The notes under the pieces were generated by a model. That model saw only the letters and a program-made list of their open reading frames with translations, was not told where the DNA came from and did no database searches. From Escherichia phage vB_EcoM_P8, in sequence record PV390659.2: a stretch of DNA of 64,000 nucleotides. One strand, 5' to 3'. The translations under genes and the position numbers were made by a program. Below, piece after piece: positions 47,783-59,806 of this stretch (the first letter of the stretch is position 1; each line of letters starts with the position of its first letter).

Positions 47783-48479
<697 letters not shown>

Positions 48480-48551: not shown

Positions 48552-48839
48552 ATGAAAACATTTAAAGAATTTACTTCTACAACTACCCCGGTTTCTACTA
48601 TTACTGAAGCTACTCTTACTTCTGAAGTTATTAAAGCAAATAAAGGACGAGAAGGTAAACCAATGATTAGTTTGGTTGATGGCGAAGAAATCAAAGGTAC
48701 TGTTTACCTAGGTGATGGGTGGTCTGCTAAAAAGGATGGTGCTACAATCGTTATCTCTCCTGCTGAAGAAACTGCGTTGTTTAAAGCTAAACACATTTCT
48801 GCGGCACATCTCAAGATTATTGCTAAAAATCTTTTGTAA
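48552..48839 (+). CDS. ipI: internal protein I precursor
   Basis: 95 aa; mature part ATLTSEVIKANKGREGKPMISLVDGEEIKG... matches T4 IPI*; 19-aa leader ending ITE. Confidence 0.85.
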   Translation: MKTFKEFTSTTTPVSTITEATLTSEVIKANKGREGKPMISLVDGEEIKGTVYLGDGWSAKKDGATIVISPAEETALFKAKHISAAHLKIIAKNLL

Positions 48840-50383: not shown

Positions 50384-50456
50384 TGGGAATTAGCCAAGTT
50401 GGTAAGGCACTGGATTTTGATTCCAGGATGCAAAGGTTCGAGTCCTTTATTCCCAG
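50384..50456 (+). tRNA. tRNA-Gln (anticodon UUG)
   Basis: cloverleaf; acceptor TGGGAAT/ATTCCCA; anticodon loop ttTTGat. Confidence 0.85.
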
Positions 50457-50457
50457 C

Positions 50458-50544
50458 GCGAGAATGGTCAAATTGGTAAAGGCACAGCACTTAAAATGCT
50501 GCGGAATGATTTCCTTGTGGGTTCGAGTCCCACTTCTCGCACCA
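50458..50544 (+). tRNA. tRNA-Leu (anticodon UAA), type II
   Basis: acceptor GCGAGAA/TTCTCGC; long variable arm; CCA encoded. Confidence 0.85.
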
Positions 50545-50549
50545 AATTT

Positions 50550-50623
<74 letters not shown>

Positions 50624-50633
50624 ATTTAATTTA

Positions 50634-50707
50634 CTCCGTGTAGCTCAGTTTGGTAGAGCGCCTGATTTGGGATCAGGAGGTCCAAGGTTCAAATCCTTGT
50701 ATGGAGA
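50634..50707 (+). tRNA. tRNA-Pro (anticodon UGG)
   Basis: D-arm GCTCAGTTTGGTAGAGC; anticodon TGG; two G-U pairs in the acceptor stem; CCA not encoded. Confidence 0.8.
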
Positions 50708-50709
50708 CT

Positions 50710-50799
50710 GGAGGCGTGGCAGAGTGGTTTAATGCACCGGTCTTGAAAACCGGCAGTCGCTCCGGCGACTCATAGGTTCAAATCCTATCGCCTCCGCCA
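50710..50799 (+). tRNA. tRNA-Ser (anticodon UGA), type II
   Basis: acceptor GGAGGCG/CGCCTCC; long variable hairpin. Confidence 0.85.
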
Positions 50800-50804
50800 G
50801 TTTT

Positions 50805-50880
50805 GCTGATTTAGCTCAGTAGGTAGAGCAACTCACTTGTAATGAGAAGGTCGGCGGTTCGATTCCGTCAATCAGCACCA
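50805..50880 (+). tRNA. tRNA-Thr (anticodon UGU)
   Basis: acceptor GCTGATT/AATCAGC; anticodon loop ctTGTaa. Confidence 0.85.
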
Positions 50881-50881
50881 A

Positions 50882-50956
50882 GGCCCTGTAGCTGGAAGGT
50901 TCAAGCAAGCGACTCATAATCGTCAGATGGTGGTTCAATTCCACCCAGGGCCACCA
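50882..50956 (+). tRNA. tRNA-Ile (anticodon CAU, presumably modified)
   Basis: acceptor GGCCCTG/CAGGGCC; anticodon CAT; position after Thr as in the T4 Thr-Ile pair. Confidence 0.75.
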
Positions 50957-50969
50957 AATTAAGAATTAA

Positions 50970-51056
50970 GGGGAGTTATCCCGTAGAGGTAGCGGTGTGG
51001 ACTGTAAATCCATTGTCATTGCGACTCGGGTGGTTCGACTCCATCACTCCCCACCA
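50970..51056 (+). tRNA. tRNA-Tyr-like (anticodon GUA), type II, with an irregular D-arm
   Basis: acceptor GGGGAGT/ACTCCCC; anticodon loop CTGTAAA and variable arm resemble bacterial tRNA-Tyr; the D-arm only folds with a 4-nt linker. Confidence 0.45.
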
Positions 51057-51060
51057 ATTT

Positions 51061-51135
51061 GGATGTGTAGCTCAATGGCAGAGCGATCGCCTGTTAAGCG
51101 ATTGGTTATAGGTTCGAATCCTATCACGTCCGCCA
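51061..51135 (+). tRNA. tRNA-Asn (anticodon GUU)
   Basis: clean 75-nt cloverleaf: acceptor GGATGTG/CACGTCC, D-stem GCTC/GAGC, anticodon loop CTGTTAA, T-loop TTCGAAT, CCA encoded. Confidence 0.75.
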
Positions 51136-51139
51136 AATC

Positions 51140-51215
51140 CGAGGCATAGCTCAGAAGGAAGAGCAAGGACCTTCTAAGTCCTAGGTCGTAGGTTCGATCC
51201 CTACTGCCTCGACCA
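51140..51215 (+). tRNA. tRNA-Arg (anticodon UCU)
   Basis: acceptor CGAGGCA/TGCCTCG; anticodon loop cTTCTaa. Confidence 0.85.
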
Positions 51216-52640: not shown

Positions 52641-52681
52641 ACTATCAACTACTGATACAGAAAAACAACTTGGAGAATGAA

Positions 52682-54818: not shown

Positions 54819-55179
54819 ACCTGTGAAGTATGAACTAAAGCGTCAGCTAATTCCTACTGATGTATTAATAGGTCCTGTGACAGCTATATCATTTGTAATT
54901 CTATTGATTGTTGGAATGGTTATAGACTTTATGACTGATATTGAATCTGGCGTAATATTTTTGTTAGTATTAATTCTTCCATTAGTAGTTCCATTTTTAT
55001 TGGTACCTGTAAATTGGGTAGGATATTGGTATCAAGGAAGGCATTATCGTAAACGTGTACGTGAATGGAAAGCTCAGTGTAAAAAGATTAAAAAGGAACA
55101 CCAGCTTAAACTAAATATGTATGAATTTAATGAAATTATGAAATTTGTTAAGGAATCACGATGCAAAAGCCAAAACTAA
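54787..55179 (+). CDS. small membrane protein P2, two TM helices, C-terminal KFVKESRCK motif
   Basis: start moved to ATG 54787; overlaps the P1 end; two hydrophobic helices. Confidence 0.55.
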   Translation: MSKPSLYLPSKPVKYELKRQLIPTDVLIGPVTAISFVILLIVGMVIDFMTDIESGVIFLLVLILPLVVPFLLVPVNWVGYWYQGRHYRKRVREWKAQCKKIKKEHQLKLNMYEFNEIMKFVKESRCKSQN

Positions 55180-55535
55180 ATAAAGTCAAATATTCTTTTT
55201 CTGAGTCATTTTTAATTTTTGCTGTAGCGTTGGCTGCAGCTCTTGCTGGTAGTCTTATTGGATTAATGATTGACTGTATTATTTTAAACATCCGCAGTAA
55301 CGTCAGCGGTATAGTAGATATAATAGAAGTTTGGAGTGAACTTCATTATACTATAGCGATTTCATTATTTTCATTCTTTGGTATTATTTTATATTTTCAT
55401 TATGATAATTTTAAAATAAATTGGCAAAGAAAAAAGGATTACAAAATACAATTAAAAGAATATAATAACTACATGTCTTATATTGAAAATGAATCAATGA
55501 AAGAATTCGTGAATGATTGTAGGAAAATCAAATGA
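55161..55535 (+). CDS. small membrane protein P3, two TM helices, C-terminal EFVNDCRKIK motif
   Basis: N-terminus MQKPKLNKVKY parallels P2 MSKPSLYLPSKPVKY; overlaps the P2 end. Confidence 0.55.
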   Translation: MQKPKLNKVKYSFSESFLIFAVALAAALAGSLIGLMIDCIILNIRSNVSGIVDIIEVWSELHYTIAISLFSFFGIILYFHYDNFKINWQRKKDYKIQLKEYNNYMSYIENESMKEFVNDCRKIK

Positions 55536-56988: not shown

Positions 56989-56992
56989 AGTG

Positions 56993-57025
56993 GTTTACTT
57001 TCTCCTAGAATTGTGATAGTATATT
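56993..57025 (+). promoter_or_regulatory. early-type promoter upstream of denV
   Basis: GTTTACt ... tgTGATAGTAT. Confidence 0.4.
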
Positions 57026-57047
57026 CACAGTTACTTGGAGGGATAAA

Positions 57048-57473: not shown

Positions 57474-57948
57474 ATGAAAACATATCAAGAATTTATCACT
57501 GAAGCAGCTATTAATTCTCAAATTATTGCTGAATCTTTTACTGATCTTTTGAAATTTAAAAAAAGGTCAAAAAATCACTGCTGTATTGGATGATGGTACA
57601 GAAGTTGAGATGGATGTACAGGGATATAATTATGCAGTAGATGGAAAACTGTATAATAAATCCCATGCTAAATTTGATTCATTTGACGACTTTGTTAATA
57701 CAGTTGAAGATGAAAAAACTCGTAGATCAATTTCAACTGGTGATGCTAAGGTTCTTATGGCACACGGTCATGAACGTATTCGTGCTAAACAGAATAAAAT
57801 GGGTGAAGATAATTTCGCATTAGTTGGTTATCAATCTGGTAAGCAAACTTATGGCTATCAGCGTACTGCTACCATGTATAATAAGAATGGTAAAATCGCT
57901 TTCGTGAATAGTAAAGGTTCTATTCAGTACGTCAAATCATTCAAATAA
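57474..57948 (+). pseudogene. internal-protein-like gene with a CTS leader (MKTYQEFITEA) interrupted by a +1 frameshift in an A7 run (57558..57564)
   Basis: frame-0 ORF 57474..57593 (39 aa) and frame-1 ORF ..57948 join into one 157-aa reading frame if one A is removed; strong ribosome-binding site before 57474. Confidence 0.55.
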
Positions 57949-58089
57949 TATGGGAACAACCTGGACCTCATGATTCTGTGAGGGATTCCCGCCAACCTGT
58001 AATAAGGTCGAGCCCAAGTGCGGTAATGGGTAAATACAGAAATGGACAATTCATGCGCCATGGAATGGCCCAAATTTAGAGAGAATAAA

Positions 58090-58629
58090 ATGAGAACATT
58101 TTTAACTGGCCCTTATCTATCCCTGATGAATGCTTTTACACACCATTCTGATGCTAGAGTAGAAGAAATTTGTAAAAACGATTATATCCCACCATTTGAA
58201 GACTTGCTTAAACAATATTGTACACTTCGACTAGATGGTGGACGTCAATCTGGTAAATCAACTGCTGTGACTAACTTTGCTGCTAATTGGCTGTATGACG
58301 GTGGAACAGTTATTGTTCTTTCTAATACTTCAGCTTACGCTAAAATTTCTGCGGGCCACATTAAAAAAGAATTTTCTCGTTATTCTGGCGATGATATTCG
58401 ATTCCGCTTATTTACCGATTCTGTCCATAGTTTTATCGGTAATAAAGGAAGCAAGTTCAGAGGTTTATCGCTTTCGCGGATTTTGTATATAATCGATGAG
58501 CCTGTTAAATCTCCTGATATGGATAAAATTTACGATATTCATATTGAAACTGTGCACCACTGTTGCAATAGTAAATGCTGCATTGGTGGTATTACTCGTC
58601 CACAGTTTTTCATAATCGGAATGCAATGA
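58090..58629 (+). CDS. P-loop NTPase-like protein with a Cys-rich C-terminus
   Basis: Walker A GGRQSGKST; Walker B-like ILYIIDEP; start taken at ATG 58090 behind GAGAGAA. Confidence 0.5.
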   Translation: MRTFLTGPYLSLMNAFTHHSDARVEEICKNDYIPPFEDLLKQYCTLRLDGGRQSGKSTAVTNFAANWLYDGGTVIVLSNTSAYAKISAGHIKKEFSRYSGDDIRFRLFTDSVHSFIGNKGSKFRGLSLSRILYIIDEPVKSPDMDKIYDIHIETVHHCCNSKCCIGGITRPQFFIIGMQ

Positions 58630-59326: not shown

Positions 59327-59547
59327 TGGCAAAGATAATTATTGAAGGTTCTAAAGATGTGCTAAATGCTTTCGCCGAGTGGTTTAGTAATTCAGGCGAA
59401 CAGCAATTTAATGAAGCATGGAATATGGGTGATATTGATGGAATTTATCCTACGACAGAAATTTCTGTTCAGGGATATGGCATTCATGAACCTATTCGTT
59501 TAGTTGAATATGATTTAGGTACTGGTGAGGAAGTAAAATATGATTGA
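59326..59547 (+). CDS. hypothetical protein, 73 aa
   Basis: ORF coupled to the upstream stop. Confidence 0.45.
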   Translation: MAKIIIEGSKDVLNAFAEWFSNSGEQQFNEAWNMGDIDGIYPTTEISVQGYGIHEPIRLVEYDLGTGEEVKYD

Positions 59548-59806
59548 AGATATTAAGGGTTATAAGCCACATACTGAAGAGAAAATCGGTAAAGTGAATG
59601 CTATCAAAGATGCTGAAGTTCGTTTAGGACTTATCTTTGATGCTTTATATGATGAATTCTGGGAAGCACTAGATAATTGTGAAGACTGTGAATTCGCGAA
59701 GAATTATGCTGAAAGTCTTGATCAGTTAACTATTGCTAAAACGAAACTCAAAGAAGCCAGTATGTGGGCTTGTCGTGCTGTGTTCCAACCAGAGGAAAAA
59801 TATTAA
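59540..59806 (+). CDS. hypothetical protein, 88 aa
   Basis: ORF. Confidence 0.45.

Follow-up and report, generated by a model that had tools for sequence, protein, structure and literature searches.

Internal head proteins of T-even phages carry a capsid-targeting leader that sends them into the scaffolding core of the prohead, where the leader is removed by the prohead protease; the proteins are then injected with the DNA (PMC3012670, PMC12373910). Ip1, Ip2 and Ip3 of T4, whose N-terminal leader targets the capsid, are injected and inhibit distinct GmrSD type IV restriction enzymes; none of them is essential (PMC12373910, PMC3012670). Ip4 resembles these three proteins in its N-terminal leader, its (L/I)xE sites, its non-essentiality and the position of its gene close to e and denV, within hypervariable accessory loci (PMC12373910, PMC3012670), whereas its body has neither sequence similarity nor detectable fold similarity to theirs, and an anti-restriction role of Ip4 would be an analogy. 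In the literature searched (including PMC12373910), no target of Ip4 was found, and a search for work on Ip4 function, on phage BMB16 or on homopolymer switching in Tequatrovirus returned nothing. The closest relatives of the gene considered here are Ip4 or IpIV of T2-type phages (T2, K3 [Q38388], RB14, RB51 and AR1), which have a length of 157 aa.

A second described system concerns mutation rather than protein function. Runs of A are the classical frameshift hotspots of T4, as in rII and e (the Streisinger model). The locus described below is the same in that a single base is added to an A6 run of a T-even phage, recurrently at one site. It differs in that the Streisinger hotspots come from laboratory mutant screens, whereas the ip4 lesion is a standing polymorphism in sewage and other metagenomes and in isolates, and is seen from sequences alone. 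We conclude, with a probability of about 0.68, that the ip4 allele analysed here is a genuine slipped-strand mutation from A6 to A7 at such a hotspot, which would be null for the delivery of Ip4, a conditionally dispensable protein.

The window, that is, the whole stretch of 64,000 nucleotides analysed, matches Escherichia phage vB_EcoM_BMB16 (PV102577.1; Tequatrovirus; host E. coli DH5alpha) at 100% identity. Coordinate mapping places position 1 of the window about 7 kb past the end of the 167,138-bp linear BMB16 record (window 1 to about 6964), and the window seems to cross the ends of that record (circular permutation or terminal redundancy). The gene order around the locus is nudE - e - denV - ip4 - vs.8-like - vs.7 - vs.6, and the position of ip4 after denV and before the vs.8-like gene, which was checked in phages HY01, BP32 and GiZh, is the same in the window. 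In these three genomes ip4 is one 474-nt CDS; the BMB16 record annotates the locus as two "hypothetical proteins" of 39 aa and 112 aa.

The features of the locus are collected in Table 1. The original prediction, which was made from the sequence alone, had placed a strong ribosome-binding site and the start codon of a capsid-targeting leader immediately past denV, with frame 0 ending after 39 codons and the body of the gene continuing in frame +1, and had noted a run of seven A from which the removal of one A gives a single 157-aa ORF. All of these points were confirmed by re-reading the sequence, by the ORF listing and its translation, and by repairing the run. The second A6 run (57569-57574) is an addition to that description.

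Table 1. Features of the disrupted ip4 gene and its immediate surroundings (window positions).
Feature	Position	Strand	Remarks
denV end	57464	+	Read from sequence; ip4 follows directly
Ribosome-binding site AAGGAA	57464..57469	+	4 nt before ATG 57474; its first base is the final one of the denV stop codon; read from sequence
ip4 (internal protein 4, DUF7412), frameshifted allele	57474..57948	+	475 nt here; intact gene 474 nt (157 codons + stop)
Capsid-targeting sequence MKTYQEFITE	57474..57503	+	Ends at the first predicted prohead-protease site, ITE/A
Leader extension to the second predicted protease site, IAE/S (E20)	57504..57533	+	Motif scan
A7 homopolymer with +1 insertion	57558..57564	+	Flanked by T and G; intact form A6 = Lys29-Lys30
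Second A6 run, unchanged here	57569..57574	+	4 nt past the A7 run; carries +1 in some other contigs
Frame-0 stop TGA	57591..57593	+	Closes the 39-aa product (leader + 19 residues)
Ip4 body, frame +1 (Gly31 to Lys157)	57565..57948	+	TAA at 57946-57948; no secondary lesion; without leader
Predicted peptides			Junction of Ip4*: SFTDLLKFKKGQK; the out-of-frame product contains KKRSKNH

In frame 0, the gene is translated as MKTYQEFITEAAINSQIIAESFTDLLKFKKRSKNHCCIG: the start codon opens MKTYQEFITEAAINSQIIAESFTDLLKFKK, the A7 run is read as AAA AAA AGG, and RSKNHCCIG then follows out of frame up to the TGA. In frame +1, the ORF listing gives a 120-aa ORF from TTG 57586. The only in-frame starts available to the body are this TTG and ATG 57610, with a convincing ribosome-binding site at neither. 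Promoter-like and terminator-like sites around ip4 were no more numerous than in shuffled sequence. The 140-nt spacer that follows the gene (57949-58090) lacks, at 57949, 12 nt that HY01 has and contains no terminator-like site that the scan could find; the annotated length of the gene 3' of this spacer differs among genomes (167-199 aa).

The identity of the gene was established with the repaired product. Its match to Pfam DUF7412 (PF24183) covers positions 1-157 of 158 and scores 318 bits, where the cut-off is 27 (E 1.3e-95); its match to PHROG 3155, "internal virion protein", covers positions 1-157 of 157 (E 1e-101). Since these are full-length matches, a chance pair of ORFs is ruled out; the claim of an internal-protein-like gene split by one extra A thus holds. 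In other contigs with the same split, both pieces of the gene match PF24183. A tblastn search with the repaired protein found 470 phage records, with 99-100% identity in T2, RB14, RB51, AR1, HY01 and many others, where the protein is annotated as Ip4, ipIV or internal head protein, and with about 68-71% identity in relatives that infect Klebsiella, Raoultella and Salmonella. The sole significant structural neighbour of the AlphaFold model (pLDDT 70.5) is Ip4 of phage K3. The gene is therefore ip4 of T2-type Tequatroviruses (T2, K3, RB14), and not ipII or ipIII. It has the same leader as its intact counterparts in these phages and, once repaired, the same length; instead of the uninterrupted frame of about 157 codons that is expected of the family, it is a disrupted allele of a family member, in which one extra A puts the leader and the body into different frames.

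Within the leader, a motif scan identified two (L/I)-x-E motifs of the prohead protease (gp21), at residues 8-10 and 18-20, of which E10 and E20 are invariant in 12 homologues. Judging from the second motif, mature Ip4* would begin at Ser21 and comprise 137 aa (about 15.5 kDa, pI 9.3). The leader belongs to the MKTYQEFIxE type of T-even internal proteins, and the N-terminal 14-22 residues also match other internal-protein PHROGs; beyond the leader, neither profile nor fold comparison detected similarity of the body to Ip1, Ip2 or Ip3. The remark in the original prediction that the body did not resemble what was remembered of IpII and IpIII was thus correct, the body being that of Ip4. The window contains another gene with a capsid-targeting leader, at 48552-48839 (95 aa, beginning MKTFKEFTSTTTPVSTITEA), in an ipI-type locus next to 57B/Acb1, which explains why the original prediction called the present gene the "second" of its kind.

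The frameshift lies ten codons past the predicted leader cleavage site. As a result, the capsid-targeting leader is parted from the 127-residue body and is fused to nine out-of-frame residues and a stop codon, so that cleavage at E20 would leave a peptide of 19 residues. A body cut off from its targeting leader should be neither loaded into the prohead core nor injected, which would make the allele functionally null for Ip4 delivery; if any body were made by re-initiation, it should still escape packaging. The viability of the phage would then be explained by the conditional dispensability of internal proteins, which, by analogy with Ip1-3, may matter only on hosts that have the cognate defence, and Ip4 would be dispensable on DH5alpha, the laboratory strain used to grow BMB16. 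Viable cultured isolates with broken copies are indeed found, namely BMB16, vB_EcoM_G4507 and, for a homologue of the gene, Salmonella phage CF-SP2, which agrees with a non-essential gene.

Before this reading is accepted, it must be asked whether the extra A is real. In a comparison with the orthologues of HY01, BP32 and GiZh, a check that the original prediction had itself proposed, the extra A is the sole length difference in the first 187 nt. One alternative is that the BMB16 record got the homopolymer wrong through sequencing or assembly, the phage itself having A6 and an intact ip4. Some platforms typically err in homopolymer length, and the junction is rarely A7 among cultured phages: 310 records hold the junction, which in 308 of them is in frame or without A7, and A6 is found in about 99% of cultured relatives. 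Only BMB16 matches the A7 query perfectly among these records, and exact queries for A5 and A8 junctions in cultured phages gave no match. The second A7 isolate, G4507 (manure, Germany), has a different local haplotype (GGACAGAAAATTAC). Furthermore, none of the A7 contigs found represents the same phage as the window, so that no other BMB16-identical contig confirms the allele.

To set against this, the remainder of the window serves as a control. When the window was compared with HY01 (97% identity), 48 of the 49 comparable homopolymers of six or more bases were equal in length, and no other coding homopolymer indel that breaks a frame was found in the 64 kb. The whole comparison contains 37 indels; of those that are out of frame, nearly all either form pairs that cancel each other in divergent patches or are located outside coding sequence. 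Apart from the run in ip4, a single homopolymer differs in length from HY01, at 52661-52665 (A5 here, A4 in HY01), about 15 nt upstream of a GGAG-ATG start and probably in a 5' untranslated spacer.

A second control uses other runs. Ten A6, T6 or A7 runs near N-termini were selected, in gp23, gp22, gp19, gp7, gp14, gp51, gp4 (two runs), Acb1 and uvsY, and their +1 products were looked up in the protein collection; none was present. The intact window proteins, in contrast to the +1 products, are listed in many index blocks (472 for gp19, 848 for gp4, 53 for gp23 and 2002 for Acb1), and the A7 product of ip4 is listed in 9. Since errors of sequencing and assembly strike genes irrespective of their function, the generic rate of +1 errors must be far below the frequency of A7 in ip4: the former is below about 0.15% per run, and real A7 alleles make up about 2-3% of observations. 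Note that most of the control runs are in essential genes, from which real frameshifts are purged, and that the controls consequently exclude error and not ordinary neutral decay. The only clean dispensable control among the ten is Acb1; since this is itself a dispensable anti-defence gene, breaks at the ip4 run are also much more frequent than at a comparable run in another accessory gene. A further control, an A6-to-A7 query for denV in isolates, gave no match, but few records share the haplotype and its power is low.

With a clean window, clean control runs and A7 in many independent assemblies, generic homopolymer error is disfavoured as an overall explanation. On the base rates just given, an observed A7 is much likelier to be real than erroneous, and the A7 of the BMB16 record is very probably real; that this particular record is in error is unlikely. 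Even such an error would not contradict the population picture, in which two of about 300 cultured genomes have A7. The original prediction had left three options, a sequencing error, a real inactivating mutation and expression through slippage on the run. The real mutation is best supported, because the allele recurs on many haplotypes and the control homopolymers are clean; error fails as a general explanation, and slippage, which is discussed below, has no comparative support.

The recurrence of A7 was examined in contig collections. The exact 39-aa product was found on nine contigs from independent Logan and ENA samples, including contigs of 168-169 kb, among them one sewage-metagenome scaffold. 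All nine have A7, and on each of them the 120-aa ORF comes next. A search with the 120-aa body as query added four more samples. The flanks of the A7 contigs are 91-96% identical to the window, with a maximum of 96.4%, and gene content varies among them: some have an extra 93-aa ORF between e and denV, some have no denV, and in some the length of vs.8 is different. The cluster of 39-aa products comprises seven sequence variants on about 18 contigs, with G4507 included, and the intact 157-aa variants that were listed are on at least 639 contigs. A7 thus represents roughly 2-3% of observations, and OFF alleles overall about 1-5%; A7 accounts for most of the broken ip4 alleles seen (about 18 of about 31 contigs). 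Two further searches were too small to be informative: exact 30-mers in IMG/VR gave no match for A7 and one for A6, and a related-locus search of metagenome and viral contigs gave ten loci only, in which all those of Tequatrovirus type were intact. As a side observation, the neighbourhood of the e-denV spacer (56989-57047) is plastic across contigs L010-L012, L016, L015 and L031; the extra 93-aa ORF occupies this place in some contigs. G4507 and L015 have no denV at the locus, so that ip4 adjoins e.

A single A7 mutation might have spread, or A7 might have arisen many times. A7 alleles occur on at least nine ip4 haplotypes, which are 1-4% apart and are interleaved with A6 haplotypes. When 14 broken alleles were compared with each other and with eight intact alleles, eight of the 14 were closer to an intact allele than to any other broken one; the window allele is 3 sites from the A6 allele of BP32 and 6 from the nearest broken allele. 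SNPs located 9-31 bp on either side of the run vary among the A7 alleles. A single origin combined with recombination would therefore need several crossovers within tens of bases, and the simpler reading of these haplotypes is that A7 arose repeatedly and independently.

Other lesions of the gene were also found. The second A-run carries +1 in P0036, P0040 and L034, the last of which has its first run synonymously changed to AAAAAGGG; P0035 and P0046 have +1 just past the run, and P0039 and P0045 have lesions near codon 50. In L038, the A6 run is intact and a CAA codon is changed to the nonsense codon TAA. Contig L026 (IMGVR_UViG_2974754850_000001), of the Klebsiella type, has A5 in place of A6 at the conserved CTGAAATTTAAAAAAGGTCAG motif and is thereby shifted by -1; its leader has Q5K. 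P0038 probably also has A5 at the same run. On the main haplotype, exact look-up in the protein collection found no A4, A5 or A8 product. Finally, the Gelderlandvirus ip4 homologue of CF-SP2 (L030, OM912978.1, about 575-600) contains an 11-bp tandem duplication (TCTACTGATGG twice) that splits it, and it encodes the conserved KYKKGQK motif as AAA TAC AAG AAA, without an A6 run. Neither a substitution nor a duplication can result from a homopolymer artefact.

Variable sites in ip4 are distributed over codon positions 1, 2 and 3 as 8/3/44, and none of the 14 broken alleles has a secondary lesion in its 119-codon body. Taken together, these two observations indicate that ip4 has been under purifying selection in the long run and that the broken alleles are young. 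The gene is thus kept over the long term but repeatedly lost at this run, by the same slip, in nature and in culture. Such a pattern fits a slippage hotspot of high rate combined with weak or episodic selection against loss.

The same pattern might also be produced by a switch. The A6 tract of ip4 would then be a reversible and stochastic ON/OFF device, with Ip4-minus variants present in phage populations at all times. This state would be favoured on hosts where injected Ip4 is a liability, as when a defence senses it or when it is costly, and would revert where the protein is needed. Like simple sequence repeat (SSR) contingency loci of bacteria, ip4 has a homopolymer early in the ORF, with tract lengths in frame and out of frame among close genomes (A6, A7 and A5 on ip4 haplotypes). 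ON and OFF alleles are interleaved among close haplotypes, the OFF alleles have no secondary damage, and a shift at the tract, which is just past the leader, produces a clean null. Moreover, +1 and -1 changes occur at the same run in two clades that are about 30% diverged in protein and that both keep A6, and breaks at the run are far more frequent than at the A6 run of the dispensable Acb1. However, a tract of 6-7 is short for a contingency locus, and codon bias alone could explain its presence: AAA is four times as common as AAG in the genome, so that a Lys-Lys pair encoded as AAA-AAA needs no selection for mutability and the run no special explanation. Gelderlandvirus homologues encode the same motif without the run, OFF alleles are as rare as stated above, and Ip4 has no known phenotype. 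Non-reversible lesions also occur, and these fit plain mutation pressure with weak or episodic purifying selection. We consider a reversible switch very unlikely and do not assign ip4 to the SSR contingency loci.

Although we prefer a recurrent null allele of ip4, the intact body in all 14 broken alleles would be compatible with continued expression as well, and two routes could allow some full-length Ip4 to be made from a real A7 allele, so that a reduced dose would be packaged. In the first, the AAA-decoding tRNA-Lys in the P site would slip by +1 onto the overlapping AAA during a pause at the rare AGG in the A site, similarly to Ty1. In the second, RNA polymerase would slip on the A7 tract. 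Efficient RNA polymerase slippage in known bacterial cases takes place on A or T runs of about 9 or more, and the seven A of the present run fall short of this.

For the first route, the required codons are in place, since A7 necessarily creates AAA AAA AGG in frame 0, that is, a slippery P-site codon followed by a slow A-site codon; AGG is rare in the phage (1.6 per 1000 codons). In E. coli, P-site slippage near rare arginine codons or A-rich tetramers gives frameshift suppression at the per-cent level (PMC10861913). A modest hairpin is predicted 16 nt downstream of the site: the downstream 96 nt have a folding z of -2.4, with 5 of 200 shuffles folding as well, which is a weak signal and is confounded by coding constraints. 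The arrangement resembles the programmed sites of prfB (CUU-UGA-C) and yeast Ty1 (CUU-AGG-C) in that the P-site codon can re-pair in +1 (here AAA to AAA) and, as in Ty1, a rare AGG follows. It differs in that the site has no Shine-Dalgarno-like stimulator upstream and is not conserved, about 97% or more of the orthologues being in frame; the arrangement belongs to a mutant allele and not to the design of the gene. The phage also encodes a tRNA-Arg(UCU), which should relieve starvation for AGG, and the alleles with a nonsense codon or the 11-bp duplication are beyond such rescue.

That tRNA gene belongs to a cluster of ten at 50384-51215 (Gln, Leu, Gly, Pro, Ser, Thr, Met, Tyr, Asn and Arg-UCU), which has a 4-nt length difference from HY01 between tRNA-Met and tRNA-Tyr, at about 50963-50968.

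Because the orthologues are overwhelmingly in frame with A6, expression by slippage lacks comparative support, and neither does the evidence support a frameshift by design. Some leakage at AAA-AGG, at a low level, is possible, and it is quite unlikely that the allele is to be understood primarily as a leaky one rather than as a null. The two ideas could be combined, the A6 of ip4 being a phage contingency locus for an injected, presumably anti-defence, protein and the OFF state of A7 being softened by Ty1-like +1 decoding. This is a long shot; if true, it would mean that a virus phase-varies a counter-defence protein which it injects.

The recurrent null allele has several consequences for annotation and use. 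At this locus, one disrupted ip4 gene should be annotated in place of two hypothetical proteins, and split calls of "internal virion protein" at this site in other genomes should be treated as real alleles and not as noise to be corrected automatically. BMB16 itself probably does not inject Ip4; should this protein counter one particular defence, as Ip1-3 do, the host range of the phage on wild E. coli may be narrower. Both the gene and the mutational mechanism that disrupted this allele of it are known. What is modestly new is that this exact slip, at a Streisinger-type hotspot, is a recurrent natural loss-of-function polymorphism of an injected protein. Natural pairs of A6 and A7 alleles (BMB16 and BP32, G4507, the sewage contigs) could be used to reveal the host factor of Ip4 and to test homopolymer bet-hedging.

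Some other features of the region deserve mention. Two recognised anti-defence genes flank it: Acb1, an anti-CBASS nuclease (PF23474), at 48024-48479, the exact sequence of which is in 2002 index blocks, and a gene at 59540-59806 for an 88-aa protein, whose counterparts in related contigs have an Acb2/Tad1 hairpin domain (PF24729). Upstream of nudE, two patches within membrane-protein genes (54879-54902 and 55223-55316) are very diverged from HY01; their many indels of 1-3 nt add up to multiples of three and point to local mosaic replacement.
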